A stretch of DNA of 64,000 nt from Gemmatimonadota bacterium (lineage in GTDB: Bacteria; Gemmatimonadota; Gemmatimonadetes; Palauibacterales; Palauibacteraceae), in assembly GCA_048060725.1 (NCBI GenBank), contig JBGMQU010000003.1, positions 527-64,526 of the forward strand. Direction: 5' to 3'. Shown piece after piece: positions 1 to 54,452 of the stretch. The position numbers and the translations under genes are program-made. Positions within the stretch are counted from its first letter, which is position 1; every line of letters begins with the position of its first letter. The notes under the pieces were generated by a model that did not search any database, was not told the origin of the DNA, and was given only the letters and a program-made list of their open reading frames with translations.

Positions 1-463
1 GCAGGGTTCGAATCCAATTCCGGGGGGCGAGAGAGAGGGCGACGTCGCGGCCGTCACGAATCACGTGTATGAACCGCGCCTTCGGCAGGTCGCGCGCGAT
101 CCGCCCCAGGAAGAGGGCATGCGCGGGAGTCGTTTCTGTCCACCCGGGTCGGCCCTGTGCCTCTGCGGTAGCCCGCATGACGATCTCGAGAAAAGCCCCG
201 GGGGTGACCCCGTTTTCGAGGAGTGGCGTGAGAAGTTGATCGGCCGGAACTCCGGTCCGACGATGGTATTCGCTCGCCAGCCAAGCCTCCGCGAGCCTTC
301 GACGAGCCCGCGGCCGCCGCGGGGAGCCGTAGCGCGCAACGAAGAGATCGTAGAGGTGGGTTTCCGCTCGATAGTTCGCGAAACAACCGCTGGACATCAA
401 GAGATGACCCAGCCACGTCGTTCCCGAACGGGGACAGCCCACCACAAAGACGGGGTTAGTCAC
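1..463 (-). CDS. Sulfotransferase family protein (partial; 3' end lies beyond the left window edge)
   Basis: This frame is missing from the ORF track because it has no stop inside the window. Hand translation of the minus strand from GTG at 463 gives VTNPVFVVGCPRSGTTWLGHLL...ARFIHVIRDGRDVALSLAPRNW. PRSGTT matches the 5'-phosphosulfate-binding loop of PAPS-dependent sulfotransferases, and RDGRDVxxS matches the 3'-phosphate-binding motif. An AGAGGA Shine-Dalgarno-like sequence lies just upstream of the GTG. Confidence 0.8.
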   Translation of the reverse strand, partial: MTNPVFVVGCPRSGTTWLGHLLMSSGCFANYRAETHLYDLFVARYGSPRRPRARRRLAEAWLASEYHRRTGVPADQLLTPLLENGVTPGAFLEIVMRATAEAQGRPGWTETTPAHALFLGRIARDLPKARFIHVIRDGRDVALSLAPRNWIRTL

Positions 464-855
464 GGATCCTCTGTTCCGGGCCCAATTGTTGCCATGCTCC
501 CACACTTGTGCGGTAACTGTCCAGCACGAAGAACGGGGCTCGAATGCGTCGGTTCGACGGCGCCCCGTATTCCAGGCGAACACGGGGCGGGGCCGCCAGA
601 CAACCTGCAGTATCGCGCGGCAAGGAACGTGCTTGGTGACTATGTTGCGTGGCACGATCGGTGTGCCGGGCGAGGATTGGGAGTGGGTTAGAGACGGGGC
701 GGGAAGCGTTGATCGCAAAAGCCGATAGTCCAGAGCCTCCGGTAGGCGCTTTGCGAGCGACGGGGACGGGTGTCTCAGGAGTCATGGGACGACCCTGGTC
801 CCGGCGTCGTCCCCAACGGCTTCCGCCTCAAGCCGTCCCCTCGGGCTCGCCCTTG

Positions 856-2199
856 ATGGCTCGGCTCCACCGCCTCGAGTTCGGCGCCTACTGGCGGTTT
901 TTTCTAAAGCAGCCCCCATCGTTCTGGCTCATTTCGTTCTATCTGCTCTTCGAGTACGTGCGGCCGCAGAGCATCTATCCTTCGCTCGACGTGCTTCCTT
1001 GGTCTCAAACATTCCTGATCGGGTGCGCGGCGGCGGTCCTCGCCGAAGGGAGGCTGTTCAAGTCGTTCGACAGTTCCGACGCCTGGCTGGTGGTATTCAC
1101 GGCCGTTCTGATCGCCTCCAGCTTCACGGCCTACTTTCCCGACGAATCGTTTGCGGAACTGCAGTCCTACCTCAACTGGGTCTTGATTTTCGTGTTGATC
1201 ACCCGGTCTGTGGACAGCGAGGGGAAGTTCTTCTTCTTCTATTTTCTGTTTCTACTGTTTAGCCTGAAGATGTCCCAGCACGCCAGTCGCTCCTGGTTTG
1301 GCGCCGGGCTGCAATTCCGCAGTTGGGGGGCGACAGGTGCCCCGGGGTTCTTCCAGAATTCGGGCGAGATGGCAATCCAGATGACCATCTTCCTCCCGCT
1401 CTCCATCTACTTCGCCCAGGCATTGAAGCCCCATCTGTCGGGTCTCACGAAGAAGTGGAAGTACTGGATGGTTCTGGCGGTCCCGTTGTCCGCAGTTTTC
1501 GCGCTCCTCGCATCCTCCTCGCGTGGCGGCCAGCTGGGCGGGCTGGCCGTGGGAGCCTGGATGTTGTTCAGGAGCAAGGCGCGGGTCCGCGGTTTCCTTG
1601 CGGCGATCTTCATTGCCGGTGCGGTGTTTCTGCTTCTCCCGGAGGAGCAGCGCGCACGGTTTGAAGAGATGGGGAGCGACGAGACGTCTGAAACGCGTAT
1701 CTACCACTGGAAAAACGGAATCAAGATCGCCAACGCCCACCCGGTCCTCGGCGTCGGTTATGCTAACTGGCTTCCCTACTACTACAAGGTTGGCTACACC
1801 ACGGGTCGGGGCAGTCAACTCTCGCACAACATCTTTATCCAGGCCGGAGCGGAGCTGGGATACGCGGGGCTTGCAGCATTCCTGACGTTAATCTTCATGA
1901 CGTTCCGGATGAATGCTCATACGAGGCGGCGCGTCGGTCAACTGCCCGACGGTAGGACCCTGTATCTCATGGCGCTCGGGCTTGACGCCGGGCTCGTGGG
2001 GTTCCTCGTGAGCGGCTCGTTCGTAACCGTGCTCTACTATCCGTACTTCTGGATCAACTATGCGATGACGGCCGCGCTCTACAAGGTTGTGCGCGGACGG
2101 TCGCGCGGAACCCGGGGGGGTGCCCGGTCGGTCCCCCGCGGGACGAGGCCCGTCGGATCGCGCGCCTCCCGCCAGATCGCCGACGCGCCCTCCGGATAG
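856..2199 (+). CDS. O-antigen ligase/polymerase family membrane protein (Wzy_C-type)
   Basis: The protein is polytopic and hydrophobic. SSSRGGQLGGLAVGAWMLF and HNIFIQAGAELGYAGLAAFL resemble the Wzy_C/O-antigen ligase domain. The start is uncertain: the track ORF starts at 649, and I chose the ATG at 856 (MARLHRLEFGAYW) just before the first TM segment. The C-terminal tail is R/G-rich. Confidence 0.75.
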   Translation: MARLHRLEFGAYWRFFLKQPPSFWLISFYLLFEYVRPQSIYPSLDVLPWSQTFLIGCAAAVLAEGRLFKSFDSSDAWLVVFTAVLIASSFTAYFPDESFAELQSYLNWVLIFVLITRSVDSEGKFFFFYFLFLLFSLKMSQHASRSWFGAGLQFRSWGATGAPGFFQNSGEMAIQMTIFLPLSIYFAQALKPHLSGLTKKWKYWMVLAVPLSAVFALLASSSRGGQLGGLAVGAWMLFRSKARVRGFLAAIFIAGAVFLLLPEEQRARFEEMGSDETSETRIYHWKNGIKIANAHPVLGVGYANWLPYYYKVGYTTGRGSQLSHNIFIQAGAELGYAGLAAFLTLIFMTFRMNAHTRRRVGQLPDGRTLYLMALGLDAGLVGFLVSGSFVTVLYYPYFWINYAMTAALYKVVRGRSRGTRGGARSVPRGTRPVGSRASRQIADAPSG

Positions 2200-2205
2200 A
2201 CGTCC

Positions 2206-3339
2206 TTGAGACCGACGCCGGTCCTCCACGTCATCGATACCGGCGGTCCCGGCGGCGCCGAGACCGTCTACCTGGATCTCCTTTGCGGGCTCCACCGAGA
2301 TCGTTGGGAGCCGATTGCGGTCGTTCCCGAGCGCGATTGGCTCTGGGAGGCTCTCGAGAACAGAGGGATCGAGCCGGTGCTCCTCAGGGGAACGCGATCC
2401 TTCGATTTCGCCTACCTGTCGAGACTACGTTCTCTGGCACGTTCGCGCCGCGTGGCCCTGCTCCAGACACACCTGCTGGGCTCCGCGGTCTACGGCGCGG
2501 CGGTGGGGCGACTGCTTCGGATACCGCAGGTATCCACGTTCCACGGAACGGTCGATATTTCGGCGTCCGACCGCCACCTGCGGGCGAAGCTGTGGATCCT
2601 GGATCGTGCGTCGACGCGACTGGTCTTCGTATCGCAGTCGCTCCAGCGGCACTTTGAAACGATCTCGGGTCACGGCCCTGCGGCCGCCCGGGTGATCCAC
2701 AACGGCATCGATCTCGAGACGTTCCGGCCCGGGTCGGAGCCGGAGCTGAGGGCAGACTTCGGGGTGGGCCAGGAGGAGATCCTGCTCGGGGCGATCGGCA
2801 ACGTTCGACCTGCGAAGGACTACCCGACGCTGCTGCGGGCGCTCGCCGAACTGGCGAAACGCGGCATCCACCCCCGCTGTATAATCGTCGGCCAGCCTTC
2901 CGGGTCTCTGGGCGGTGATCTGCTCGCCCTTCGCGCGGCACTCGGGCTCGAAAAAACCGTCGAATTCATCGGTTTCAGATCCGACATCGACCGGGTACTG
3001 CAGGCGCTCGATGCTCTCGTGATCAGCTCATCCTCGGAGGGGTTCTCGCTCACGGCCGTCCAGGCCCTGGCGACCGGTACGCCGGTCGTATCGACGCGGT
3101 GCGGGGGGCCCGAGGAGATTCTGGAGCACGACGTCACGGGCGTGCTCGTACCGGCCGGGTCTCCCTCTGCGCTCGCCGACGGGATCGAGCGGATTTGCTC
3201 GGATCGGGCGCTTCGGGCCCGACTCTCATCCGGCGGGCGCAGGGTGGCGGAGTCGCGGTTCTCCCTCCACATGATGATCGAGGGATACGAACGTCTTTAC
3301 CACGAGTTGTCCGAGGGTCGAAGGGGGGCGCGCGCATGA
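2206..3339 (+). CDS. Glycosyltransferase family 4 (GT-B)
   Basis: The N-terminus VLHVIDTGGPGGAETV and the C-terminal SSSEGFSLTAVQALATGTPVVSTRCGGPEEIL (E-x7-E region) are typical of GT4 enzymes. Confidence 0.85.
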   Translation: MRPTPVLHVIDTGGPGGAETVYLDLLCGLHRDRWEPIAVVPERDWLWEALENRGIEPVLLRGTRSFDFAYLSRLRSLARSRRVALLQTHLLGSAVYGAAVGRLLRIPQVSTFHGTVDISASDRHLRAKLWILDRASTRLVFVSQSLQRHFETISGHGPAAARVIHNGIDLETFRPGSEPELRADFGVGQEEILLGAIGNVRPAKDYPTLLRALAELAKRGIHPRCIIVGQPSGSLGGDLLALRAALGLEKTVEFIGFRSDIDRVLQALDALVISSSSEGFSLTAVQALATGTPVVSTRCGGPEEILEHDVTGVLVPAGSPSALADGIERICSDRALRARLSSGGRRVAESRFSLHMMIEGYERLYHELSEGRRGARA

Positions 3340-4541
3340 GTCCGTCTGTGCTGATCACCTGCGGTGAGCAGCGCTCGGCGCTCTCGATCGTCAGGTCGCT
3401 GGGGCGCGCGGGCTTCCGAGTACGCGTGTGCTCGTCGCGGGCGCCTTCCCTCGCCGGGGCCTCACGGTTCGCAGATGAGGAGCACGTCGTTCCGGACCCC
3501 GTAATCCGACCCGAGGCGTTTGCCGTCGCCCTCACGGGACTGATCGAGAAGTTGCGGCCTGACCTCGTGATCCCGGTTACGGAGGCGGCCCTGTTGGCTT
3601 CGCTGAGTATCGAGACCGGCCGGTCCGGGACGAAATTCCCGTTCCCGGATCTCGAACGCTTCGCCGCGGTTTGTGACAAGACCCGCGTGTTCGAGGCCGC
3701 ACGCGCCGAGGGCATTTCCGTGCCGCGCGAGGTGGTGCTGAACCGTCGTTCGGACCTGGCCGGTGCCTTCGTCGACATCTCCTTCCCGGTGGTGATCAAA
3801 CCGGCGCGTTCCGTCTCGGGCAACTCGGTCGAACGCAGCAAGCATGTGGTACTCCACGCGACCGATTCCGCGGCCCTGTCGGCAGCAGTCGATCTGCTTC
3901 CAGATGAAGCGTTCCCGGTGCATGTTCAGCAGCGGATCGTCGGTCCGGGGATCGGCGTGTTTCTGTTGCGCTGGGAGGGTAGGACGCTCGCGGAGTTCGC
4001 TCACCGTCGGATTCGGGAGAAACCGCCCTCCGGTGGGGTCAGCGTGCTTTGCGAAAGCGTGGAGGTTGATCCCGATCTGCTGGACGCCTCGCTGCGTCTG
4101 CTCGCGCGGTTCGAATGGGAGGGGGTCGCGATGGTGGAGTACAAGCGTGACGCCGCCACGGGCCGGGCCTATTTGATGGAGATCAATGGCCGATTCTGGG
4201 GCTCGCTCGAGCTCGCCGTGAAGTCCGGCGTCGACTTTCCGCGGCAGCTGGCCGCCGCCGCGCTCGGGAACGCCGTCGAGCCCATTGGGCGATACCGCGT
4301 GGGCGTACGGAACCGGTGGGTATGGGGAGATGTCGACCACCTCATCATGAGGCTCCGCCGGTCTGCGGCTCAGTTGTCGTTGCCCCACGGAGCACCCGGA
4401 AGGGTGCGCGTCGTGATCGACTTCTTCCTCGCCTTCCTGTGGGCCCGGCCCGAGGTCTTCCAAATTTCCGATCCCGCTCCGGCATGGCGCGAGACCCGGG
4501 ACTGGTTTGCAGCGCTCGGCGGCTCCGGGAGGGGCCCATGA
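3336..4541 (+). CDS. ATP-grasp domain protein
   Basis: The track ORF 3099..4541 carries an R-rich N-terminal extension. The ATG at 3336 overlaps the upstream stop (ATGA). The sequence SPSVLITCGEQRSALSIVRSLGRAGFRVRV...FPVVIKPARS...GVAMVEYK...YLMEINGRFWGS has the pre-ATP-grasp plus ATP-grasp pattern. Confidence 0.75.
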   Translation: MSPSVLITCGEQRSALSIVRSLGRAGFRVRVCSSRAPSLAGASRFADEEHVVPDPVIRPEAFAVALTGLIEKLRPDLVIPVTEAALLASLSIETGRSGTKFPFPDLERFAAVCDKTRVFEAARAEGISVPREVVLNRRSDLAGAFVDISFPVVIKPARSVSGNSVERSKHVVLHATDSAALSAAVDLLPDEAFPVHVQQRIVGPGIGVFLLRWEGRTLAEFAHRRIREKPPSGGVSVLCESVEVDPDLLDASLRLLARFEWEGVAMVEYKRDAATGRAYLMEINGRFWGSLELAVKSGVDFPRQLAAAALGNAVEPIGRYRVGVRNRWVWGDVDHLIMRLRRSAAQLSLPHGAPGRVRVVIDFFLAFLWARPEVFQISDPAPAWRETRDWFAALGGSGRGP

Positions 4542-5164
4542 GATCGGCGGACCGCATGGTGGCGCTCCGTTACCCGGTGCAGCGTGCGTGGGCCCGTTTT
4601 AAGACCCGCTACCTTCTCGATTACACGTTCGTCCACATCAACAAGACCGGTGGAAGCAGCATCGAGCAGGCCCTCGGCATGCCGTTTCAGCACCGTACCG
4701 CTCTCGAGCTTCGGGAGCTGATCGGAGATGCAGCGTGGGATCGGCGATTCTCGTTCGCCTTCGTACGGAACCCCTGGGACAAGGCGGTTTCCCACTATCA
4801 CTACCGGGTGAAGACGGGGCAGATGGGACTCGGCGACACCCCGGTACCGTTCGACGAGTGGGTAATCCGCGCATACGGGGAACACGATCCGGCCTACTAT
4901 GATCAGCCGCGTATGTTCATGCCGCAGTACCAATGGCTGTCGGGTCCTTCAGGCAATTCGATGGTTGACTTCGTGGGTCGATTCGAGCGGCTGCACGACG
5001 ATTTCGCCGAGGTGTGCAGGCGAATCGACGTCGATGCCTCGCTCCCTCATCTCAAGAAATCGAAGCACCGTGACTACAGGGATCTGTATTCGACGGAGTG
5101 TCGGGACGTGATCGCGCGCGTGTTCGAGGGCGACCTCGAGCGGTATGACTACGAGTTCGGATGA
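4538..5164 (+). CDS. Sulfotransferase family 2-like protein
   Basis: The ATG at 4538 overlaps the upstream stop (ATGA). FVHINKTGGSSIEQAL matches the HIPKTGGTS-type motif, and FAFVRNPWDKAVSHYHY matches the FVRNPWDRxxS-type motif of sulfotransferase family 2. Confidence 0.75.
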   Translation: MRSADRMVALRYPVQRAWARFKTRYLLDYTFVHINKTGGSSIEQALGMPFQHRTALELRELIGDAAWDRRFSFAFVRNPWDKAVSHYHYRVKTGQMGLGDTPVPFDEWVIRAYGEHDPAYYDQPRMFMPQYQWLSGPSGNSMVDFVGRFERLHDDFAEVCRRIDVDASLPHLKKSKHRDYRDLYSTECRDVIARVFEGDLERYDYEFG

Positions 5165-6348
5165 GTACGAAACCGCCTCCGACGCTCCTGTGCTCTGCGA
5201 ACTTCCCGGCCGGCGCTGGATATGCGTGGGACTTCATCGAGAGCCTCTATGCGGGCGTCGCCGACCGACTCGCCGAGCGAGGAGTGCGCACATTCGTGGC
5301 GTACCCCGGCATGAAGGAGCCGCCGGGCCCCCTGGAGGGAGCCGCCGCGGAAGCAATCGATCGGGAGTTCCGCGTGGGCCCCGATGGTGGTACGTCCCGG
5401 GCCTGCGCCCTGGTTCGGGAATTGGGAGCCACGGTGCTCTACATGGCCGACCGACCCGCCTGGCACCCTGGATACGCGGCCCTGCGTCGCGCTGGCGTCC
5501 ACAGCATCATCGTGCACGATCACACATCCGGGACGCGTTCTCGCCCGCGAGGTGCCAGGAGAATGCTCAAGCGGATCCGTAGCGGGCTGCCGGGCACGCT
5601 GGCCGATCGTGTGATCGCGGTGAGCGACTTCGTCGCGCGCCGAAAGATAGAGGTCGACCTCGTTCCCGCCGACAGAGTCCTGCGGGTCTGGAATTCCATC
5701 GAAGTGGACGTCGAACCGGGGACGTCCGCCGACGCCGCGGTCGCCGCGGTGCGACAGGAACTGGCGATCGAGACGGCTCGACCGATTGTCCTGGCCGCGT
5801 GCCGTGCCTCGAAACACAAAGGAATCCACCACCTGCTCCGGGCGTTCGACCGTCTTGAACGTGATCCGGAGCGTCCGGAGAATCGCCCCGCGCTCGTCTA
5901 TGCAGGTGACGGGCCCGATTTCGCCGATCTGCGGTCGCTTCGTGAACGTCTTGACTACGGCTCCGACGTCCACCTTCTCGGGTATCGTGCGGACGTGCCA
6001 ACCTTGATCGAGGCGGCCGCCGTGTGTGTCGTGCCGTCGGTCTGGGCTGAAGCGTTCGGCCTCGCGGCGCTGGAACCGATGGCGCTTCGGCGCCCTGTTG
6101 TCGCGTCCGAGGTAGGCGGACTCCCAGAAGTCGTCGTCGACGGCGAGACCGGCGTGCTGGTTCCCCCCGGAGACGAACGGGCGCTGTCGACGGCCCTGGG
6201 GGCCTTACTCGCCGATCCGGGCGCTCGCCATCGGATGGGCGAAGCCGGGCGACGGCGGGTTTTCGAACGGTTCGAGCGCAGAGCCCAACTCGATCGACTG
6301 GCCGAGGTGATCGCTCAGCAGTTTCCCACGGGGGTCCTCGATCCATGA
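5161..6348 (+). CDS. Glycosyltransferase family 4
   Basis: The start overlaps the upstream stop (ATGA). VPSVWAEAFGLAALEPMALRRPVVASEVGGLPEVVVDGETGVLVPPGD is a classic GT4 C-terminal domain. Confidence 0.85.
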   Translation: MSTKPPPTLLCSANFPAGAGYAWDFIESLYAGVADRLAERGVRTFVAYPGMKEPPGPLEGAAAEAIDREFRVGPDGGTSRACALVRELGATVLYMADRPAWHPGYAALRRAGVHSIIVHDHTSGTRSRPRGARRMLKRIRSGLPGTLADRVIAVSDFVARRKIEVDLVPADRVLRVWNSIEVDVEPGTSADAAVAAVRQELAIETARPIVLAACRASKHKGIHHLLRAFDRLERDPERPENRPALVYAGDGPDFADLRSLRERLDYGSDVHLLGYRADVPTLIEAAAVCVVPSVWAEAFGLAALEPMALRRPVVASEVGGLPEVVVDGETGVLVPPGDERALSTALGALLADPGARHRMGEAGRRRVFERFERRAQLDRLAEVIAQQFPTGVLDP

Positions 6349-7256
6349 GCGCACGCTCGTTGATCAAGCGCCTCGCCGAGTCGGCCACGACAACCCTTGG
6401 GGTGGTGCGCGCCTCGGAGCGGGCCAACCGCCACGGAGTCGCGGTGCTGTCCTATCACAACATCGTCCCGGAGGGCGAGGCGTCGATCGGCGATGTCTCG
6501 CTCCATCTCCCGGTTCGAACGTTTCGGGAACATCTGGACTGTCTCCAGGCCCACTACCGGGTCGTGGGGCTCGACCGGCTGGGCGACCCGCATGATGGGA
6601 CAGCGCCTCGGGTGGCGATCACCTTTGACGACGCGTACTGCGGTGCCGTGGTTACGGGGCTGGCCGAGCTGGCCCGTCGGCGCCTCCCCGCCACGGTGTT
6701 CGTATCCGCCGGATTGCTCGATCGCCGCTCGTTCTGGTGGGATCGGCTGTCGGATGAGGAGGGGCGCATTCCCATCGGACGGCGCGATCACGCGCTGTGG
6801 CATCTGGCCGGTGCGGACCAGGCGGTCCGCGAGTGGATGGCGGACGAGGGGATGCGAGAGAGGGAGATTCCCGAACATGCCCTTTCGGCGACACGCGCGG
6901 AGCTGTCGAGTGCTATCGCGGTGTCGGACGTGACGATCGGGGCACACGGGTGGGATCACCTCAATATGGCCGCGCTGTCTGCCGCGCAGCTCGCGCAAGA
7001 ATGTGCGAAGCCGGCCGAGTCGCTACGCGGCGACTGGACTTCATACCGCCCGTGGGTCGCTTACCCTTATGGTTTGTCGTCCGACACCGTCGTCGCTGCC
7101 GCGGCGGATCACTATCGGCTGGGGTTCCGAATCGATGGCGGACTCGCGCGCGTGGAGGAGATCGCGGATCGACCGCTAGCCGTGGCGCGGATCAACGTCC
7201 CTGCGGGGCTCTCTGCGCGCGGGCTTCGACTCCGAGTGTCGGGGTTGCGGACGTGA
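6345..7256 (+). CDS. Polysaccharide deacetylase (NodB/CE4-like)
   Basis: The start overlaps the upstream stop (ATGA). VAVLSYHNIV, VAITFDDAY (TFDD motif) and IGAHGWDH (His motif) fit the CE4 deacetylase pattern. Confidence 0.75.
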   Translation: MSARSLIKRLAESATTTLGVVRASERANRHGVAVLSYHNIVPEGEASIGDVSLHLPVRTFREHLDCLQAHYRVVGLDRLGDPHDGTAPRVAITFDDAYCGAVVTGLAELARRRLPATVFVSAGLLDRRSFWWDRLSDEEGRIPIGRRDHALWHLAGADQAVREWMADEGMREREIPEHALSATRAELSSAIAVSDVTIGAHGWDHLNMAALSAAQLAQECAKPAESLRGDWTSYRPWVAYPYGLSSDTVVAAAADHYRLGFRIDGGLARVEEIADRPLAVARINVPAGLSARGLRLRVSGLRT

Positions 7257-7261
7257 TCCGA

Positions 7262-8731
7262 TCACTGACGCCGGAGACGACCGAGCGCGTGGGCCGGGAA
7301 CGCTCGGACGATCCTGCGCTCATCTTCGCTGAGCACGAGCGCGTAGAGTCCGACCGCGCCCAGCGCCGCGAGGGCTGTCGATACGCCGATGGAGGCCACG
7401 AGCGCTCCGGTCGGCAGGAGGAGCTTGAGGGTGAACGGGACCGCGAGTACGAGGTAGATGAGCGCGATGCGGCGCCAACCGTACTCGAAGCGATGAACAC
7501 GTTGCCCTACGGCGAGCACGATCAGGAATCGCAGCGCATAGGCGATCAGAGTCGCATACGCGGCTCCGTACATCCCGTAGCGAGGGATGAGGGCGAAGTT
7601 GAGAGCGAGCACCATCGCGCCGACGAGGAGCGCCAGGCGACCCATGATCTTCGTCCGCTCCGTGATCAACATGCTGAGGTTCGGGAACGAGACGAGGTGA
7701 TAGAGGATCTGGGCCCCCACCATGATCGGTATGAGGTTGGCTGCCTCGTGGAACCCGGGACGCCGCGCCATGATTCGGATGAGATCTCCCGCGAACAGAG
7801 CGATCACGAGCGCCATGAACCCCAGAACGATGTTGAGATATCTGAACAGCCGACGGATCGTGGCCAGACCATCGGGCCTCCGCGCGACCTCGAAGCGTTG
7901 CGGCCCCCACACGAGTTGAAATGGTCGGAAACCAAACGCGTGCAGGAGCATGGTGAAGCGAAACGCGAGCGAGTACACGCCGACGGCGGCGTCACCCGAG
8001 AAGATCCGAAGAAAATAACGATCGGAGAATACGATCAGGAAGTTGGACAGCGTCCACGGCACGAGGGGGGCACCGAAACGGGCAAGGGCGCGCGCGTTCG
8101 CCCGGACGAACCTGGTCCCGACCTCTCGGAATTGATGGACCAGGAGTCCGGTGGCGAACAGCATCCCCGTGATGAGGCTGGAGTACAACACGCCCAGGAT
8201 TCCCAGATCCTGAAACACGACGAAGTAGACGTTGAGGCCGAGCGCGACGATCAGCCGGACGACGTTGGTCAGCGCGAAGACGCCGGAACGTTGACGCGCT
8301 CGCATATGGAGCAGCGGGATCGATTCGGCCGACTGGAGAAAATAGATCACGAAGAACAGGCGGAAGTACTGGGCGTCGCCGTTCTCGCCGAGCACCACGG
8401 AAGAGAGAACGGGTGCCGCCAGGGCACCGGAGATCGCCAGGACGCCCGTGAAGGCCATCAGCATGAGCGACGCGGTGCTGATCACCCCATTCTTGTCCGC
8501 CTGCGTCTCGGCGTCGGTGTAGAACTTGTACACGGCGCCAGCCACGCCGGCGCTTGCGATCGTACCGAGGAAATCGACGGTGAGGGTCAGGAGTTGGAGC
8601 GTGCCGTAGTCACCCTCGGTGAGGTACGACGTGTAGATGGGCAGCATGATAAAGCCCGCGAGGCGGCCTACGGCGATGCCTGCGCCGTACACCACCGCGT
8701 GTCGTCCGAGCGTGCGTATTTCGCTTGCCAA
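7262..8731 (-). CDS. wzx: Oligosaccharide/polysaccharide flippase (Wzx, MOP superfamily)
   Basis: This 489-aa protein has roughly 12-14 hydrophobic segments. The N-terminus AVVYGAGIAVGRLAGFIMLPIYTSYLTEGDYG is typical of the polysaccharide biosynthesis protein family. Confidence 0.8.
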   Translation of the reverse strand: MASEIRTLGRHAVVYGAGIAVGRLAGFIMLPIYTSYLTEGDYGTLQLLTLTVDFLGTIASAGVAGAVYKFYTDAETQADKNGVISTASLMLMAFTGVLAISGALAAPVLSSVVLGENGDAQYFRLFFVIYFLQSAESIPLLHMRARQRSGVFALTNVVRLIVALGLNVYFVVFQDLGILGVLYSSLITGMLFATGLLVHQFREVGTRFVRANARALARFGAPLVPWTLSNFLIVFSDRYFLRIFSGDAAVGVYSLAFRFTMLLHAFGFRPFQLVWGPQRFEVARRPDGLATIRRLFRYLNIVLGFMALVIALFAGDLIRIMARRPGFHEAANLIPIMVGAQILYHLVSFPNLSMLITERTKIMGRLALLVGAMVLALNFALIPRYGMYGAAYATLIAYALRFLIVLAVGQRVHRFEYGWRRIALIYLVLAVPFTLKLLLPTGALVASIGVSTALAALGAVGLYALVLSEDERRIVRAFPAHALGRLRRQ

Positions 8732-8850
8732 CGGCTCCCTCGTCGCCTAACGGTCCATCTGCCAACGTCTTGCACAGGACGGGATCAAGACCCGTGCCGT
8801 CATGGGGCCAGCCGGAAGATCGCGGACCGGTCGCACTCCGGTCCAGTGTG

Positions 8851-9957
8851 ATGCGGATTCTCCACACTCTGGCGCCGGCGCCCGTGGGCGGGCTCGAGCG
8901 GGTGGTGCAGATGCTGGCAAAGGCTCAGAGCGCGGCCGGACACGACGTCGCCGTTCTCGGCGTCGTCTCGCCAACCCGGGATTCGCACCCCTTCTTCGCG
9001 GCGTTTGACGATTCCGCAGTCGACGCACGACCGCTCGTCGTGCCCGATCGCGAATGGATCCGGGAGCTTCGGGCGCTGGCGACCGAGTTGCGGAGGTGGC
9101 GGCCCGAGATCGTGCATACACACGGCTACCGATCCGATGTTCTGATGGGGCGGACGGCCCGCCGAGCCGGCGTTCCAACCGTTGCGACCGCCCACGGTTT
9201 CATCGGCGGCGGGCTGAAGAACCGCCTCTACGAGTGGCTGCAGACGGCATCCTATCGGCGTGGGACGCACGCTATCGCGGTCTCACGCCCGCTAGGGGAA
9301 GAGTTGGTACGGCGGGGGGTGCCGGCGAGCCGGCTGCACCTGGTCCCCAACGCCTGGGCGCCCGATGGCTCGTTTCTCGAACGAGAGGCGGCGCGGCGCG
9401 CCCTGGGCCTCGACGGGCCGGGCCCGATCGTCGGTTGGGTCGGTCGGGTGAGCCGGGAGAAGGGCGCGGATGTCGCGGTTGAAGCTCTGACTCACCTCCC
9501 GGACGTGCGGCTCTCGATCGTGGGAGACGGAGCGATGCGGGGGGAACTGGAGCAGTGCGCGAAGGAGCAGGGAACGACCGACCGCATCCGTTGGCACGGG
9601 TGGCGTTCACGAGCGGACCTGATGCTTCGGGCGTTCGACGTCCTGGTCCTGAGCTCACGCACCGAGGGCACCCCCATCATCGTGCTCGAGGCCCTTGCGG
9701 CAGGGGTGCCGCTCGTGGTCACACGGGTGGGCGGCGTTCCGGATGTCGTTCGACACGATCGGGAAGCTCTGCTCGTCCCTTCGGAGGATCCGGTCGAGCT
9801 GGCCCGGGCCGTGCAGGCCTGCCTTGACGACCCCACCTCTGCCCGTGCGAGGGTCGCCAGAGGGCGGTCGCGGGTCGAAACAGAATTTGGAGTGGACAGT
9901 TGGGTCGCCCGTCACGAACGCGTGTACGAGGCGGCCAACGGAAAGGGGGGGGCGTGA
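8851..9957 (+). CDS. Glycosyltransferase family 4
   Basis: I chose the ATG at 8851 (MRILHTLAPAPVGGLERVV), which is typical of a GT4 N-terminus; the track ORF starts at 8725. The C-terminal LSSRTEGTPIIVLEALAAGVPLVVTRVGGVPDVV also fits GT4. Confidence 0.85.
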   Translation: MRILHTLAPAPVGGLERVVQMLAKAQSAAGHDVAVLGVVSPTRDSHPFFAAFDDSAVDARPLVVPDREWIRELRALATELRRWRPEIVHTHGYRSDVLMGRTARRAGVPTVATAHGFIGGGLKNRLYEWLQTASYRRGTHAIAVSRPLGEELVRRGVPASRLHLVPNAWAPDGSFLEREAARRALGLDGPGPIVGWVGRVSREKGADVAVEALTHLPDVRLSIVGDGAMRGELEQCAKEQGTTDRIRWHGWRSRADLMLRAFDVLVLSSRTEGTPIIVLEALAAGVPLVVTRVGGVPDVVRHDREALLVPSEDPVELARAVQACLDDPTSARARVARGRSRVETEFGVDSWVARHERVYEAANGKGGA

Positions 9958-11135
9958 GCCCGACGAGCATCGGCGTTGTTCTGGTGGCGATCCCGTTCGG
10001 GATGCTCGGCTATGCCTACGTCCTCTATCCAATGATCTTGCGCGCCCTGGCCGCCGCGAGGTCGAGCCACACGACCACGGAAGCGCCCGCTGAGTGGCCA
10101 ATGATCAGCGTGTCGCTTCCCGCGTACAACGAGGAGGAGGCGATCGCGGGGGCCCTCGACGCGCTTCTCGCCGCGGACTATCCGGCGGATCGTAGACAGA
10201 TCCTTGTCACCTCCGATGCGTCGGATGACCGAACCGATGAGATCGTGCGATCGTATGCCGATCGCGGCGTCGAATTGTTGCGCCTCGAAACTCGCGGCGG
10301 CAAGACGGCGGCGGAGAATGCCGCAGCCGAGCACCTTCGCGGCGCGATCGTAATCAACACCGATGCCTCCATACGGATTCCAGAACGGTCACTGAAGCCG
10401 CTCGTCGCGGCCCTGGCGGATTCGACCGTCGGCGTTGCGTCGGGGCGCGACATCAGCGTCGGTGCCGAGGGCACCGAGGCGGGCGCTGGCGAGACCGGTT
10501 ACGTGGGGTACGAGATGTGGGTGCGGTCGCTCGAAAGCGATCTCGGCTCGATCATCGGTGCCAGCGGGTGCTACTACGCGACCCGTCGTGATCTTCATGT
10601 CCTCCCGGTCCCCGACAACCTGAGTCGCGACTTTGCAGCCGTCCTCAAGGCGCGGGTGCACGGGTATCGGTCGGTCCACGTACCCGACGGCATTTGCCTG
10701 GTCCCCCGGACCGGATCCGCAGGGGTCGAGTATCGTCGAAAGGTCCGGACGATGGCCAGAGGGCTCGGTACGCTGTGGCACTACCGGACCTTGATGAACC
10801 CGCTCCGATACGGCGGGTTCGCGATCAAGCTTATCAGCCACAAGCTGTGTCGGTGGCTGGTGCCACCGTTGCTGCTCGTGGGTGCGATCGGCATCGGGTT
10901 TCTCGCTGTGGACCACGTCTGGGCCCGGGTAACGCTGGGGCTCGGTGTGGGTGGGCTCGGCCTGACCGGGTTGGTGGTCTGGTGGCCCGCTGACCGGCGG
11001 CCCCTGCCGCGCGCCGTCAACCTGTTCGGCTTCGCCGTTTCCGCGAACCTGGCCGCGATCGCAGCGTGGACAAAGGCGTTGAAAGAGGGAGGTGGCTCGG
11101 CCGTCTGGGAACCGACGAGACGGGACGCGGTCTAG
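9954..11135 (+). CDS. Glycosyltransferase family 2 (membrane-anchored, processive-type architecture)
   Basis: The GTG at 9954 overlaps the upstream stop (GTGA). An N-terminal TM segment is followed by ISVSLPAYNEEEAI...VTSDASDDRT...INTDAS (GT-A DxD region), then C-terminal TM helices. Confidence 0.8.
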   Translation: MSPTSIGVVLVAIPFGMLGYAYVLYPMILRALAAARSSHTTTEAPAEWPMISVSLPAYNEEEAIAGALDALLAADYPADRRQILVTSDASDDRTDEIVRSYADRGVELLRLETRGGKTAAENAAAEHLRGAIVINTDASIRIPERSLKPLVAALADSTVGVASGRDISVGAEGTEAGAGETGYVGYEMWVRSLESDLGSIIGASGCYYATRRDLHVLPVPDNLSRDFAAVLKARVHGYRSVHVPDGICLVPRTGSAGVEYRRKVRTMARGLGTLWHYRTLMNPLRYGGFAIKLISHKLCRWLVPPLLLVGAIGIGFLAVDHVWARVTLGLGVGGLGLTGLVVWWPADRRPLPRAVNLFGFAVSANLAAIAAWTKALKEGGGSAVWEPTRRDAV

Positions 11136-11962: not shown

Positions 11963-12153
11963 CCGTCCTCCACACCCGGGTGGCGCCCGGCTGGATCGCG
12001 CCGGACTCGCTAGAGTCTGTCAGCCGAGGCAAGTTAGACGGGGCCACAGGGCAGTTCCAGCCCGGCCCCCGCATCGCGGGCAAGGAACCTGCAAGCATGC
12101 GACCAGCGCGGGTGGACCGCGGGGCAGTCGCGGGGGAAAGCCGAGGAGCTACG

Positions 12154-13113
12154 GTGAACGGTGAGTTCGGGAAATCCACGACGGTGTTCATCGTCGGGTG
12201 TCCGCGAAGCGGGACGACCTGGATTCAGCTGTTGCTGGCCCATCATCCGCTCGTGGCCACGGCTCCCGAGACGCAGATCTTCGCGTACTATCTCGAGTCG
12301 TTCAAGAAGCAATGGTTGTGGGAACAGGAGGGCGCCGGTGGCAAGCGGCACGGGGGTGCCGGGCTCAACCGCCTTCTGTCCGAGGAGGAGTTCGACGACC
12401 TCTGTCGTGAGACGGCCAACTTCGTGCTCGAGAAGATCGCGAGCCGGAACCCGGATGGCCGGGTGGTCGTCGAGAAGAGCCCGAGACACGCCCTCCAGGC
12501 CGCCTGGATCTCTCGACTGCTCCCCGACGCCCGCTTCCTTCATGTGGTCCGCGACCCGCGCGACACGGCCGCGTCGCTGCTGGCGGCGGGTGCGAGCTGG
12601 GCCCCCTGGGCCCCCCGGAACCCGACAGGTGCGGGGAAGCTATGGCTCGAGTGCGTCGAGGGCGCGCGCCAGGTCGGCGGGGACGACGTCACGTACCGTG
12701 AACTGAGATACGAGGACGTGCGGAAGGATCCTGTGGTCGCCGTGCAGGGCGTATTCGACTGGTTGGGGCTACCTGACGACCGAGAACTCTGCGAGCACGC
12801 GGTCGAGCAGTGCCGTCTCGACCGGCTTCAGGAGAACGTCTCCGGGGATTCGTTGCCGATCCCCAATCGAAAGTCTCCAATCGGTTTCTTCAGGCGAGGG
12901 GTGGTCGGCGGGTGGCAGGACGAGTTGTCCGGATGGAAGGTGCGAGTGATCGAGGACATCTGCGGCCCGTTGATGGACGAATATGGATACGAACGGGCCG
13001 CGACCTCGAGTAGCTTCCCCATCGCCACGGTGCGAAGAGGTCTCCACGAGGGTCTGACCAGGCTTCACGGCGGGCTCGACTGGCGGATCAAGCGGCTCAT
13101 CCGCCGCATCTAG
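12154..13113 (+). CDS. Sulfotransferase family protein
   Basis: The GTG at 12154 is preceded by GAGGAG at 12143-12148. The track start at 11893 would overlap the divergent gene. VFIVGCPRSGTTWIQLLLAHHP is the 5'-PSB loop and RFLHVVRDPRDTAASL is the 3'-PB motif. Confidence 0.8.
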   Translation: MNGEFGKSTTVFIVGCPRSGTTWIQLLLAHHPLVATAPETQIFAYYLESFKKQWLWEQEGAGGKRHGGAGLNRLLSEEEFDDLCRETANFVLEKIASRNPDGRVVVEKSPRHALQAAWISRLLPDARFLHVVRDPRDTAASLLAAGASWAPWAPRNPTGAGKLWLECVEGARQVGGDDVTYRELRYEDVRKDPVVAVQGVFDWLGLPDDRELCEHAVEQCRLDRLQENVSGDSLPIPNRKSPIGFFRRGVVGGWQDELSGWKVRVIEDICGPLMDEYGYERAATSSSFPIATVRRGLHEGLTRLHGGLDWRIKRLIRRI

Positions 13114-13156
13114 GATCGACCGCGTTCGGCGCGATCCGCGTACCTCATGGATGCAG

Positions 13157-13194
13157 GAAGGGCCGGGCCCCCTCGCGGGGAAAACCGGCCCTTC
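13157..13194. terminator. Bidirectional hairpin between convergent genes
   Basis: There is a perfect 10-bp inverted repeat, GAAGGGCCGG (13157-13166) and CCGGCCCTTC (13185-13194). It encloses a GC-rich inner CCCC/GGGG repeat. The hairpin sits between the stops at 13113 (+) and 13234 (-). There is no clear U-tract. Confidence 0.5.
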
Positions 13195-13233
13195 AGACGT
13201 GCCCGTCCGTCTATGTGCCGCTATCTCTCGTTC

Positions 13234-15729
13234 CTATACGGCGTCCGCGTAGTAGTAGTGGACGTAGTACTCGTAGTCCGGAGCCGACTTCGGCAGCGCG
13301 TTGAGCACGGCCCCAACGATCGGGAGGTCCACGTTTCCGAGCGCATTGAGCTTCGCCTTCGCCAGATCTTCGGTGGTTGTCCCGGCGCGCAGCACCACGA
13401 CGACCTTGTTCACGAGCGATCCGAGGAGCAGCACGTCAGCTCCTGCGGCGAGCGGTGGGCCGTCCATGACGACCACGTCATACTCTTCACGCATTTGATC
13501 GAGCAGGCCGCGCATACCGGCACTCTCGAGCAGGTCCGCGTTGAATCCGCCCGGCGCACCGCGCGCGAGCAGGGTCAGGTTCTCGATCGACGTTTCCTGG
13601 CGAATCTCATCCAGTGTCGCCCGGTCCATCAAGAAGTCGGTCAGCCCCGGCGAACGGTTGAGGTTGAACATCTCCTGGGCGCGTCCGCGTCGCGTGTCAC
13701 CGTCGAGCAACAGGGTCCGGTACCCGGCCGTCGCGTACGAAATCGCGAGGTTGGCCGAGACCATCGACTTGCCCTCTCGTGGCGCCGGGCTGGTAATCAG
13801 CATCACGCCGCCCGGGTTGCCGTCTACGTGTGCGATCTGCGTGCGGAGTCCGCGGAAGGACTCGACGGCGATCGCCGCAGCGGGGCTCGCGGGGTCGGGC
13901 GTAGCTTCGAGCCGCGGCACGACTGCGAGCACGGGCAGGCCGAGCGCGCCCGTAACCTGGTCAGGTGAATGGATCCGGCGGTCGAACCGATCGAAGACGA
14001 CAACGCCGGCCACGCCGATGCCGAGACCGAGCAACGCGAAGAGGGCGATCACTCCACCCGGCTTCTCGCCACGCGGCGACGGGTCGGGCCATGCCGGATT
14101 GAGGATAGTGATCCCCGGCCCGCTGGTCGCCTCGGCCAACTCCGCCTCCTTGAGACGCGAAAGAAGCACCGAGTTGAGACCGGCAGCCTGCTGGACCTCA
14201 CGCTGCAGGCGGGCCGTCTGAATCGTTCGCTGCGGGATCTCCCGAAGCTGAACGCCCTGATTGGCGATCTGCCGATTGAGGAGGTCGACCTGGTTCTGGA
14301 TTTCGGAGCCGAGGCGCGCGAGGGCGGCCGGGATGATCGAACGTTCGAGCTCGTTCATCAGCTGTGTGGCCTGGACGACCTCGGGAGCCACCTCCGTATA
14401 CGTCGACAACAACGTGCGCCGGTTCAGCCGCGCCTGATACAGCTGGTCGACGGCAGACTGGAGTTCCGGATATTGACCGGCCGACGGCAACATTCGGATG
14501 GCGAGAAGGTTCAGCGGTCGGCCCGCAGACAGGTCCGCCCGGATCCCCTCGATCTGCTGGTACTCGAGCTGCAGTTGGTCGGCGCGCAGCTTGTTGTTCG
14601 CGAAGGCGCTGAACATCGGATCCGGCGATCCGAGGGCGGTCGCGGTCCCGACCGATGTCTGGGCCGCGAACGGCTCCGTCGGCTCCGTGATCGCATCTAC
14701 GCGATGCGCCTGCAGGCTGAGTTCGGCCCGCTGTAACAGTGCACCCGTGAGGTCGGACTGTTCCTGAAGAAGTTCCACTTCGTCACGAATTTTTGTCGTC
14801 CTGAGCCGATCGGCCAAGTTGACGAACTCGGCGGTGATCGCATTCAGGATCTCAGCCGCCTCATAGGGGTCGTGCCAGACGAACTCCGCGGTGATGATGT
14901 CGGAGCGATTCCTGAACCCGGCGTCGAGTCGACCGGCGAGGTTGCGAACCGTGGCCTGGGCCGTGTTGATTCGGAAGCGGATCTCGGAGTCGGCCAGCGC
15001 CGAAAGATCGGGAGACCACGAGAAGCCAGCGGACGACCCGATCTCACCACCTCGCTGCCCCTGTTCGATCGCGTTCGACTCGCCTGCACGAGCGAGAGCC
15101 CATGATCCACCCGAGCCGACGGTGACCTCGTATTCGCCGGGAACCGATTCGTCCGATACGAGGAAGTGGTCGAAAAGCGAGCGCTCGGTATCACCGAGCA
15201 CGCGCAACTGAAGCCCGAGCTCTTCTACGACCGGTGAGAGAACCGCTCGACTGGAGAAAACATCGGTCCACCCGTCGACGGGCAGCACCGAACCCGCCTG
15301 GATGGGGCCAGTCTTCGTCGTACCGCCGTCCTCGATGGCCAGCGTCGTCGACGTCATATACTCTGGGGAGACGAGTTGAGACGCGCCCCATCCGACCCCG
15401 AGCCCGACAGCGACCGCCCCGAGCAGCCATAGCTTCTTCGTCCACAGCAATCGACCGAGCCGGCCGAGTTCCAGCCCCTCACCCTCGCCCTGGTTGATTG
15501 CATAGTCCGGGTAATAGTACGTGTGCGCAGGAGCTACCTGGCCCTGCTGCGGGTACGGTACCGGAACCGACCCCCCCACTCTATCGTCGTTGGTCAACGA
15601 TCTTCTCCATTCCCCCTCGAGTGCTCCGAACGACCCCGAAAACTGACTCTCCCCGCGCCGGAGGTCGTCGCCGCTCTTAGGAGCAAGACTGGTGCCGGGG
15701 ACCGCCGCTCCGATGTGCCCGTGGTTCAT
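13234..15729 (-). CDS. Polysaccharide co-polymerase / tyrosine autokinase (Wzc/GumC/EpsG-like)
   Basis: This 831-aa protein has two TM segments flanking a long coiled periplasmic region. The C-terminal kinase domain has Walker A (SPAPREGKS), Walker A' (LLLDGDTRRG) and Walker B (DVVVMDGPPL). The tail is tyrosine-rich (PDYEYYVHYYYADAV). Confidence 0.85.
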   Translation of the reverse strand: MNHGHIGAAVPGTSLAPKSGDDLRRGESQFSGSFGALEGEWRRSLTNDDRVGGSVPVPYPQQGQVAPAHTYYYPDYAINQGEGEGLELGRLGRLLWTKKLWLLGAVAVGLGVGWGASQLVSPEYMTSTTLAIEDGGTTKTGPIQAGSVLPVDGWTDVFSSRAVLSPVVEELGLQLRVLGDTERSLFDHFLVSDESVPGEYEVTVGSGGSWALARAGESNAIEQGQRGGEIGSSAGFSWSPDLSALADSEIRFRINTAQATVRNLAGRLDAGFRNRSDIITAEFVWHDPYEAAEILNAITAEFVNLADRLRTTKIRDEVELLQEQSDLTGALLQRAELSLQAHRVDAITEPTEPFAAQTSVGTATALGSPDPMFSAFANNKLRADQLQLEYQQIEGIRADLSAGRPLNLLAIRMLPSAGQYPELQSAVDQLYQARLNRRTLLSTYTEVAPEVVQATQLMNELERSIIPAALARLGSEIQNQVDLLNRQIANQGVQLREIPQRTIQTARLQREVQQAAGLNSVLLSRLKEAELAEATSGPGITILNPAWPDPSPRGEKPGGVIALFALLGLGIGVAGVVVFDRFDRRIHSPDQVTGALGLPVLAVVPRLEATPDPASPAAAIAVESFRGLRTQIAHVDGNPGGVMLITSPAPREGKSMVSANLAISYATAGYRTLLLDGDTRRGRAQEMFNLNRSPGLTDFLMDRATLDEIRQETSIENLTLLARGAPGGFNADLLESAGMRGLLDQMREEYDVVVMDGPPLAAGADVLLLGSLVNKVVVVLRAGTTTEDLAKAKLNALGNVDLPIVGAVLNALPKSAPDYEYYVHYYYADAV

Positions 15730-19105: not shown

Positions 19106-19197
19106 GGTCCTCGACCCGGTCACCCCTTGAAACTTACGCCCCCTGTGTGGGAGTATGCAGGGAGCGGGCGAGACGATCGGCAACGACGGTGGAAGCG

Positions 19198-19714: not shown

Positions 19715-19769
19715 CTGGACGCGCGGTTTTGTGCATCCCCACCCGTTCGCACTCCCTGGTGGCTCTCTG

Positions 19770-54445: not shown

Positions 54446-54452
54446 CCCGCCC

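Follow-up and report, generated by a model that had tools for sequence, protein, structure and literature searches.

A Wzx/Wzy-type polysaccharide locus with four sulfotransferase-family genes and putative sigma-54 promoter elements in a Gemmatimonadota metagenome-assembled genome

Introduction

Sulfated polysaccharides are valued biomaterials, and their chemistry is well documented in few bacteria. One such case is the xss cluster of Synechocystis, which encodes Wzx and Wzy, eight glycosyltransferases (GTs) and two sulfotransferases, and the product of which carries two sulfates per eight-sugar repeat (PMC8205485). The 2021 paper on this polymer, synechan, regarded sulfated polysaccharides as essentially cyanobacterial (PMC8205485), and the cluster has earlier been transplanted to a host that makes 3′-phosphoadenosine 5′-phosphosulfate (PAPS; PMC13125312). 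Here, we analyze a locus in a 64,000 nt stretch of DNA (in the following, the window) from a metagenome-assembled genome (MAG) of a Gemmatimonadota bacterium (assembly GCA_048060725.1, contig JBGMQU010000003.1). The region from 1 to 15.7 kb of the window is a Wzx/Wzy/Wzc polysaccharide locus, and it contains four genes of sulfotransferase families, termed ST-A to ST-D.

Outside the cyanobacteria, a sulfated capsule has been described for Vibrio (PMC11641403) and for Cobetia (PMC11766843), and sulfated exopolymers for Pontiella (PMC7356697). Genes for sulfotransferases, GTs and polysaccharide export have been found together in MAGs of several phyla (PMC9723792), and a 2024 review counts six bacterial genera with documented sulfated polysaccharides. 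Our literature search retrieved no paper that in substance ties Gemmatimonadota to sulfotransferases.

The Gemmatimonadota locus shares with xss the dependence on Wzx, Wzy and a polysaccharide co-polymerase, the presence of several GTs, and embedded PAPS-type sulfotransferases from different subfamilies. Furthermore, in both cases a two-component system adjoins the cluster, and the outer-membrane exporter is apparently encoded elsewhere. The differences are that the Gemmatimonadota locus encodes four proteins of sulfotransferase families, where xss encodes two, as well as an ATP-grasp ligase and a deacetylase, and that sigma-54 and an NtrC-type activator appear to take the place of the STAND activator XssQ. 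In addition, sulfation has been proven chemically for the xss product, whereas for the Gemmatimonadota locus it is predicted from the sequence. The cluster of Vibrio sp. KMM 8419 (PMC11641403) is likewise a non-cyanobacterial surface-polysaccharide locus with several sulfotransferase genes. However, it is of the ABC-transporter (Kps) type and has its own cysD, cysN and cysC genes, whereas the locus described here is of the Wzx/Wzy type and has no PAPS genes nearby. It is probably a sulfated-polysaccharide locus of a known kind, made notable by its conservation in Gemmatimonadota, the putative sigma-54 control and the atypical ST-C subfamily.

Results

Three canonical and one atypical sulfotransferase

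The gene map of the window (65% G + C) was rebuilt from six-frame open reading frames (ORFs), codon-position GC and Pfam searches, and all family assignments in the locus score over the Pfam gathering threshold. A previous sequence-only reading of this DNA had proposed four sulfotransferase genes, and searches with the family hidden Markov models confirmed all of them with scores over gathering:

1-463, minus strand: ST-A, Sulfotransfer_3; only the N-terminal 154 codons, as the left edge of the window cuts the gene
4538-5164, plus strand: ST-B, Sulfotransfer_2 (PF03567, E 5.2e-10), 208 amino acids
11132-11962, minus strand: ST-C, Sulfotransfer_3 (PF13469, E 4e-21), atypical
12154-13113, plus strand: ST-D, Sulfotransfer_3 (E 1.5e-32) and Sulfotransfer_1 (E 1.7e-20), 319 amino acids

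Judged from their residues, ST-A, ST-B and ST-D are predicted canonical sulfotransferases, and ST-C is an atypical one. The motifs quoted in the sequence-only reading are literally present, that is, GCPRSGTT in ST-A and ST-D, GCYNSGTT in ST-C, and HINKTGGSS and FVRNPWD in ST-B. The same reading had ascribed a 5′-phosphosulfate-binding (5′-PSB) loop together with a 3′-phosphate-binding (3′-PB) motif to three of the proteins. This was correct for ST-A and ST-D, but not for ST-C, which has no basic residue in the 5′-PSB loop and the Arg of the 3′-PB motif without its Ser. On alignment, ST-A, ST-B and ST-D keep the PAPS-binding residues, whereas ST-C lacks two of them, although its sulfotransferase fold is still clear.

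ST-D reached 114 bits with PF13469 and 73.9 bits with PF00685, both over gathering. All 45 homologues share its loop GCPRSGTT, with R18, as well as E39, K108, R133 and S141. The alignment of the protein with TPST2 covers the 5′-PSB loop, the 3′-PB motif, the Lys and the catalytic Glu, and in this alignment the five residues are equivalent to the PAPS-binding and catalytic residues R78, E99, K158, R183 and S191 of TPST2. In ST-B, which reached 40.3 bits with PF03567 (cutoff 22), K36 (HINKTGGSS) as well as R77 and S85 (both in FVRNPWDKAVS) are the same in all of 38 homologues. Both homologue sets span 40–78% identity, and the invariance of the PAPS-binding residues implies selection for the catalytic site. 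Each of the two proteins is 100% identical to an NCBI protein, in the case of ST-D annotated as "MAG: sulfotransferase [Gemmatimonadota bacterium]". ST-B has 1601 relatives at E ≤ 1e-5. A sequence search of the PDB with ST-B gave no match; its AlphaFold model has a predicted local distance difference test (pLDDT) value of 92.5, and about the top 30 Foldseek matches of this model in the PDB all have the sulfotransferase fold, including retinol dehydratase, but are weak (best E 1.6e-3, template modelling score ≤ 0.5).

The truncated ST-A still reached 69.2 bits with PF13469 (E 7.7e-19) with its N-terminal 154 codons alone. A GTG start at 463 gives the N-terminus MTNPVFVVGCPRSGTT, in agreement with the N-termini of the homologues. 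ST-A retains R12 of the 5′-PSB loop (GCPRSGTT), the Glu (RAETH), and R136 and S144 of the 3′-PB motif (IRDGRDVALS), all of which are conserved in homologues; the Lys of the "EKSP" motif is replaced by Thr, as in the closest subfamily. Residue conservation in the three families thus supports the prediction that ST-A, ST-B and ST-D bind PAPS. None of the four sulfotransferase-family proteins (for ST-A, the part in the window) has a hydrophobic segment, which suggests that they are located in the cytoplasm, where PAPS occurs.

We also observed that the C-terminal tail of the ST-D family, from about residue 290 to 319, is conserved and basic (R294, R303, R305, W310). It may form an amphipathic helix for membrane association.

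A large subfamily of ST-C-like proteins

ST-C clearly belongs to PF13469 (76.7 bits, over gathering), yet its 5′-PSB loop reads GCYNSGTT, with Asn at the position of the Arg/Lys, and the Ser of the 3′-PB motif is replaced by Gly. Alignment of the ST-C and ST-D family profiles with hhalign (probability 99.85%) established which columns are equivalent. Both replacements are typical of the family, since N41 is present in 57 of 59 sequences and G155 in all 59. The Glu, the Lys and the 3′-PB Arg are kept and are similarly conserved (E63 in 58 of 59, K122 and R147 in 59 of 59). A published definition of sulfotransferases comprises the PSB Lys/Arg, the PB Ser and the fold (PMC11625862); of these three features, ST-C has only the fold. 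The AlphaFold model of ST-C (pLDDT 96) matches only sulfotransferase folds among its top 50 PDB hits, led by TPST1/2 and CurM (TPST2 E 4e-10).

TPST1/2 and CurM/OLS (3AP1, 5WRI, 4GBM, 4GOX) are the closest solved structures to both ST-C and ST-D. The fold, the Glu and the Lys are common to all of them, and ST-D additionally shares the PRSGTT 5′-PSB loop and the 3′-PB Arg and Ser. In contrast, ST-C lacks the 5′-PSB Arg and the 3′-PB Ser, and the acceptors differ, namely protein tyrosine or a polyketide hydroxyl for the characterized enzymes versus, presumably, a sugar for those described here.

The subfamily is large, as 145 representative clusters match ST-C at E ≤ 1e-30. In some proteins ST-C-type domains are fused to GT2 domains (three clear cases and a weak one), and other fusion partners are GT4, a PIG-L GlcNAc de-N-acetylase, a methyltransferase and other sulfotransferase domains. 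The fusions to GTs and to a de-N-acetylase indicate a carbohydrate substrate. No characterized member was found among the proteins of the subfamily (P0361–P0510). ST-C thus belongs to a large, conserved Sulfotransfer_3-like subfamily that may have a non-canonical mechanism or a changed activity.

Gene content and operon structure of the locus

The remaining genes of the locus are the following:

856-2199, plus strand (start ATG 856 or 784): wzy-like gene, Pfam Wzy_C, E 1.1e-20
2206-3339, plus strand: GT4a, Glycos_transf_1 (E 5e-34) and Glyco_transf_4
3336-4541, plus strand: ATP-grasp ligase, ATPgrasp_Ter, E 2.2e-10
5161-6348, plus strand: GT4b, Glycos_transf_1, E 5.6e-37
6345-7256, plus strand: polysaccharide deacetylase, Polysacc_deac_1, E 2.2e-14
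7262-8731, minus strand: wzx flippase, Polysacc_synt, E 1.1e-19
8851-9957, plus strand: GT4c, Glycos_transf_1 (E 3.3e-34) and Glyco_transf_4 (E 2.3e-28)
9954-11135, plus strand: membrane-anchored GT2, Glycos_transf_2, E 2.3e-19
13234-15597, minus strand: wzc co-polymerase/tyrosine autokinase, Wzz, GNVR and AAA_31; the ORF is open to 15729

The pathway set thus consists of a flippase (Polysacc_synt), a Wzy_C protein, a co-polymerase with Wzz, GNVR and tyrosine kinase domains, three GT4 and one GT2. The Wzy-like protein, Wzx, the four GTs and Wzc had all been named in the sequence-only reading, and each was found at the proposed coordinates with a score over gathering. This reading had neither mentioned the ATP-grasp ligase and the deacetylase nor taken into account the minus-strand orientation of four genes, namely ST-A, ST-C, wzx and wzc. 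The Wzy-like protein has at least four hydrophobic segments and Wzx at least nine. No hydrophobic segment was found in the deacetylase, including its N-terminus, and the protein is a weak NCBIfam match to HfsH. Wzc reached 149 bits with TIGR01007 (cutoff 108) and has a Tyr-rich C-terminus (YEYYVHYYY).

Consecutive genes are connected by 4 nt start/stop overlaps at five positions (ATGA at 3336, 4538, 5161 and 6345; GTGA at 9954). The overlaps had been noticed before and are real, but the single operon that had been derived from them for all plus-strand genes is not. As wzx and ST-C have the opposite orientation, the plus-strand genes are divided into a block from 856 to 7256 and another from 8851 to 11135, with wzx in between. 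We therefore predict two plus-strand operons, with ST-A, wzx, ST-C, ST-D and wzc each transcribed apart. In the first operon (wzy, GT4, ATP-grasp, ST-B, GT4, deacetylase), ST-B is translationally coupled at both of its ends.

The G + C content at third codon positions (GC3) is even over the locus (0.71–0.82), which indicates that it is native to the genome. Recent horizontal transfer was considered and ruled out by the uniform GC3 together with the synteny in related organisms. An Rfam scan found no families, a scan for sigma-70-like promoters found none, and terminators were not in excess. Leftward extension by look-ups of exact proteins yielded only Logan contigs of 3–4 kb, and nothing for the three possible starts of Wzy. 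The source MAG is absent from the GTDB representatives.

Conservation of the locus in Gemmatimonadota

Related loci were identified with the profile of the ST-D family in a GTDB set that represents each species by one genome. This search gave 270 matches, the best 80 of which were listed; the fetched loci are denoted by L numbers. All relatives with at least 48% identity are from Gemmatimonadota or Longimicrobiales MAGs, except for one unclassified MAG, and weaker relatives are from Acidobacteriota, Alpha- and Gammaproteobacteria, Planctomycetota, Verrucomicrobiota, Chloroflexota and Actinomycetota. Cultured Gemmatimonadota are not represented among the best 80 of the 270 matches.

The locus most similar to the window is L012 (= L085/L086), which has the same gene order and protein identities around 60% (about 50–67%). 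ST-B, ST-C and ST-D are present in L012/L085, ST-A is absent, and the region leftward of wzy contains two more GT4 genes, one GT2, PGA_cap and CapK_C genes. The whole gene set (ST-B, ST-C, ST-D, ATP-grasp, deacetylase, GT4s, GT2, Wzy, Wzx, Wzc and the regulator described below) is collinear in L012/L085 and rearranged in other Gemmatimonadota MAGs; such copies are found in many MAGs of the phylum and contain two to five sulfotransferase genes. Orthologues of the GT2 in related loci are 50–65% identical, and those of the ATP-grasp protein in eight loci (L003, L005, L009, L010, L012, L019, L020 and L069) are 47–55% identical. Both the ATP-grasp ligase and the deacetylase are soluble proteins, and their genes are conserved together with the sulfotransferase genes across the related Gemmatimonadota loci. 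They may produce an amide-linked substituent and a free amino sugar, respectively.

The number of sulfotransferase ORFs was determined for 88 loci (87 fetched loci and the window, with a few loci duplicating one place). Most loci have one (55) or two (21), 10 have three, the window is the only one with four, and a single locus has five. The latter is a Longimicrobiaceae contig (L050, 1266-8919) with five consecutive ORFs of types D, A, D, C and B. In a Gemmatimonadales genome (OY970192.1, 5.4 Mb), a region of about 32 kb contains four genes of sulfotransferase families, interleaved with genes for Bac_transf, the exosortase EpsH, EpsI, asparagine synthase, a FemAB-like protein and a DUF3473 deacetylase; this is a locus of the XrtA/PEP-CTERM type. 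Bac_transf is present inside the related locus L003. Four sulfotransferase genes are thus at the high end, yet within a phylum-wide pattern. The view that sulfated bacterial polysaccharides are uncommon holds for chemically documented cases, which are few, but is overstated for the genes, since homologous loci with several sulfotransferases are common in Gemmatimonadota MAGs and similar genes in MAGs were already known (PMC9723792).

Sigma-54-type elements and an adjacent activator

Three elements of the −24/−12 type were found in the locus, and a regulator and a kinase are encoded next to it:

619-632, plus strand: −24/−12 element GGCAAGGAACGTGC, between the divergent genes ST-A and wzy, with wzy downstream
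12079-12092, plus strand: −24/−12 element GGCAAGGAACCTGC, 62 bp before the start codon of ST-D
15683-15696, minus strand: −24/−12 element GGCACCAGTCTTGC, upstream of wzc, the sole strict match in the first 20 kb of the window
16300-18045, plus strand, start uncertain: NtrC-family sigma-54-dependent response regulator, Response_reg, Sigma54_activat (E 1e-65) and HTH_8
18074-19105, plus strand: histidine kinase paired with the regulator, HisKA and HATPase_c

The element GGCACCAGTCTTGC is kept upstream of wzc in six related loci (L012/L085, L015, L069, L019, L003), where it forms a conserved island amid divergent intergenic DNA. A second motif, GGCAAGGAAC[C/G]TGC with GG-N10-GC spacing, occurs exactly twice in the 64 kb, upstream of wzy and of ST-D. 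In L085 it precedes wzy (at 6054), ST-D (at 16725) and an additional GT4 operon (at 3269), and the element upstream of ST-D is at the equivalent site in L012/L085. Including these three, sigma-54-type elements were found in L085 at 3269, 6054, 16725 and 20283, and in L003 at 1390, 8703 and 17247. Two plus-strand operons of the Gemmatimonadales locus have the variant GGCAAGATCCATGC upstream. A loose search of the whole window for TGGCAC-N5-TTGC with up to two mismatches showed no enrichment (38 matches found versus 39.8 expected), so that the case for sigma-54 rests on the strict match at wzc and on the conservation at orthologous sites.

The regulator gene is divergent from wzc. Its product is 90% identical in L012, the gene adjoins wzc in L003, L008, L015 and L069, and the L012 orthologue of the kinase is 60% identical. 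With TIGR02915, the PEP-CTERM-box regulator family, the regulator reached 358.6 bits, which is under the cutoff of 502.6. The conserved elements and the adjacent NtrC-family activator and kinase support a putative sigma-54 regulon, in which the regulator would act at these promoters.

The position of the wzc element also bears on the start of wzc. The ORF (13234-15729, minus strand) has 831 codons and takes in its own probable promoter. As the conserved element is located within the first codons of this long ORF, and as the orthologue in L085 has 785 amino acids, translation probably starts at the TTG at 15597, which is preceded by GGAGAAGATCG.

Other genes in the window

Rightward of the kinase are housekeeping genes, for example those for IMP dehydrogenase and cell-wall hydrolases. 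Genes for BatA-like and DUF58/VWA proteins (36319-39281, minus strand), an ordinary aerotolerance-type operon, are located beside Mfd (32981-36496). Four adjacent genes at 52802-57380 (minus strand) encode a FAD-dependent oxidoreductase/halogenase-like protein, a radical SAM protein, an asparagine-synthase-like protein and a 121 amino acid ORF without Pfam match, and could represent a small cluster for a natural product or a modified peptide. They are followed at 57554-60754 (minus strand) by a gene for a 1066 amino acid protein with Sortilin/Vps10 and BNR repeats.

Discussion

In our judgment, the region fairly probably comprises the larger part of a locus that directs the Wzx/Wzy-dependent synthesis of a sulfated, acidic heteropolysaccharide, either extracellular or capsular. 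From knowledge of the families we infer the substrate, the order of steps and the sulfation itself. Four GTs would build the repeat unit on undecaprenyl phosphate at the cytoplasmic face. Still in the cytoplasm, the soluble deacetylase would de-N-acetylate it, and the ATP-grasp ligase would possibly amidate it. ST-B, ST-D and probably ST-A would catalyze PAPS-dependent O-sulfation (and possibly N-sulfation), with ST-C as a possible fourth sulfating enzyme. The finished unit would be flipped by Wzx and polymerized by the Wzy-like protein, with chain length and export controlled by the tyrosine autokinase Wzc. Expression would probably be driven by the sigma-54 promoters before wzc, wzy and ST-D, with the NtrC-family regulator and the kinase as probable activators. 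A gene for a UDP-glucose/GDP-mannose dehydrogenase is found 8 kb rightward of the locus (23876-25294, minus strand), and its product could supply a uronic acid precursor.

Several observations point to a sugar as the acceptor. These are the position of ST-B within a GT operon, the fact that all four proteins are without a hydrophobic segment, and the fusions of ST-C-type domains. The known characterized members of PF03567, the ST-B family, are carbohydrate sulfotransferases. The seed of this family consists mostly of chondroitin and heparan sulfate enzymes, and PF13469 also includes a carbohydrate sulfotransferase, NodH (PMC11625862).

A number of findings weigh against a sulfated polysaccharide as the product. 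Among solved structures, those nearest to ST-A, ST-C and ST-D are sulfotransferases for protein tyrosine or polyketides, with about 20% identity. ST-A is truncated at the edge of the window, and its best database relative is only 52% identical; ST-C has lost two hallmark residues. Therefore, the earlier conclusion from four genes to a heavily sulfated polymer was too strong, all the more as the ST-C residues are replaced family-wide. The Wzy_C domain does not discriminate between polymerases and ligases. In addition, neither a priming phosphoglycosyl transferase (Bac_transf) nor a Wza-type exporter (Poly_export) appeared in the Pfam results for the ORFs of the window, which indicates that the locus is incomplete or runs past the left edge; the respective genes may be elsewhere in the genome or beyond that edge. 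Finally, co-located cysDNC genes have been proposed as a hallmark of sulfated-polysaccharide clusters (PMC11641403), and no cysD, cysN, cysC or sat was found in the window, which was searched with Pfam, or next to the related Gemmatimonadota loci. Likewise, tblastn with CysD, CysN and CysC of E. coli gave no match in the window or in the Gemmatimonadota loci, and matches were obtained only elsewhere. In a Verrucomicrobiota MAG (L066), homologues of all three genes (18352-20821) adjoin a relative of ST-D, as does cysC alone (12073-12624) in a Terriglobia MAG (L045), and one Alphaproteobacteria locus (L052) has a partial CysN. PAPS genes thus cluster with the ST-D-type family in some phyla, but not in Gemmatimonadota.

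Among the alternatives, the one that fares best, though we regard it as rather unlikely, is that the locus produces another sulfated glycoconjugate, such as an O-antigen-like chain, a glycolipid or a protein glycan, in which case the Wzy_C protein would be a ligase, possibly with a link to an exosortase/PEP-CTERM system. In rhizobia, lipopolysaccharide (LPS) is sulfated by LpsS. Further rhizobial sulfation targets include the K-antigen and Nod factors (KpsS and NodH; PMC11625862). NodH, NoeE, KpsS and LpsS are, like the enzymes proposed here, bacterial PAPS-dependent enzymes acting on glycans, and ST-C and ST-D are weak matches to the NoeE model (29–41 bits versus a cutoff of 500); the rhizobial enzymes differ in acting on Nod factors, K-antigen or LPS and in receiving PAPS from nodPQ.

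Haft and colleagues reportedly described in 2006 the exopolysaccharide loci associated with exosortase A and PEP-CTERM proteins (TIGR03097, TIGR03088, TIGR03018, TIGR02915). Like the window, such XrtA loci encode a sigma-54 response regulator together with a kinase, a tyrosine autokinase, a deacetylase, GT4 transferases termed "stp" and a "ligase" that resembles Wzy. The best NCBIfam model for the Wzy-like protein is TIGR03097, the exosortase-A-associated O-glycosylation ligase (107.6 bits, cutoff 188), and those for the three GT4s are also XrtA-system glycosyltransferases (for GT4a TIGR03088, under cutoff), whereas for Wzc and the regulator the XrtA families are outranked by general models. 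Moreover, the homologous genes of OY970192.1 are mixed with those for EpsH, EpsI, Bac_transf, asparagine synthase, the FemAB-like protein and the DUF3473 deacetylase. However, all matches to XrtA families are far under the curated cutoffs, the window has no exosortase, EpsI or PEP-CTERM gene, and in the closest relative none of the genes up to 10 kb from ST-B encodes an exosortase. A tyrosine autokinase of the Wzc type is, furthermore, typical of capsule and exopolysaccharide assembly and not of O-antigen, which counts against the glycoconjugate. We rejected the label of an exosortase/PEP-CTERM system for the window, as it lacks the genes that define such systems and its matches to TIGR03097, TIGR03088, TIGR03018, TIGR03007 and TIGR02915 are under cutoff.

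It is improbable that the organism does not sulfate the polymer at all, or only singly, either because PAPS is unavailable or because the proteins, above all ST-C, have changed; changed proteins might be structural partners or enzymes with another donor or acceptor. The replacement of both PAPS-defining residues throughout the ST-C subfamily (definition in PMC11625862), the missing equivalent of TPST2 K158 in ST-A and the lack of PAPS genes in the window would fit this view, but ST-B and ST-D keep every PAPS-binding residue, invariant in their 38 and 45 homologues, and ST-C keeps the Glu and Lys equivalents, is itself strongly conserved and is matched by the 145 clusters mentioned above. The synthesis of PAPS or adenosine 5′-phosphosulfate (APS) is, moreover, widespread among sulfate-assimilating bacteria. 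The notion that the Sulfotransfer_3 proteins A, C and D act on tyrosines of secreted proteins or peptides or on a small molecule, and are mere neighbours of the polysaccharide genes, can draw on their nearest solved relatives (human and tick tyrosylprotein sulfotransferases and the CurM/OLS polyketide domains) but is very hard to sustain, because the identity to these enzymes is only about 20%, genes of types A, C and D stay with those for GTs, Wzx, Wzy and Wzc even in rearranged loci, the fusion partners of ST-C-type domains are GTs and a sugar deacetylase and no peptide-processing domains, PF13469 includes NodH (PMC11625862), and the locus has no candidate peptide or polyketide genes.

Within the favored reading of a sulfated heteropolysaccharide, a more far-reaching version can be formulated, namely that a pathway under sigma-54 control is common to Gemmatimonadota and yields an exopolysaccharide that resembles glycosaminoglycans and is sulfated several times, with O-sulfate and, following de-N-acetylation, N-sulfate, and that the ST-C-type enzyme is active without the canonical 5′-PSB Lys/Arg and 3′-PB Ser. 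This version is tentative, and we would not expect it to hold in full. The combination of a sugar deacetylase with sulfotransferases, as well as one PIG-L deacetylase-sulfotransferase fusion in the ST-C subfamily, is reminiscent of the animal NDST enzymes; yet the deacetylase domains are unrelated, the bacterial enzymes are soluble, and N-sulfation in the present case is speculation.

Gemmatimonadota are a widespread phylum of soils and sediments. The results suggest that this whole, mostly uncultured phylum carries candidate genes for sulfated polymers, and single loci contain as many as five genes for sulfotransferases. The related loci offer compact bacterial sulfotransferases (208–319 amino acids) for enzyme discovery, the atypical ST-C subfamily and a testable regulatory model, comprising putative sigma-54 promoters and an adjacent activator. 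Sulfated glycosaminoglycan-like polymers have been reported from granular sludge, where their producers are unidentified (mentioned in PMC7356697). If the glycosaminoglycan-like reading is true, Gemmatimonadota could be among the producers of these granular-sludge polymers.

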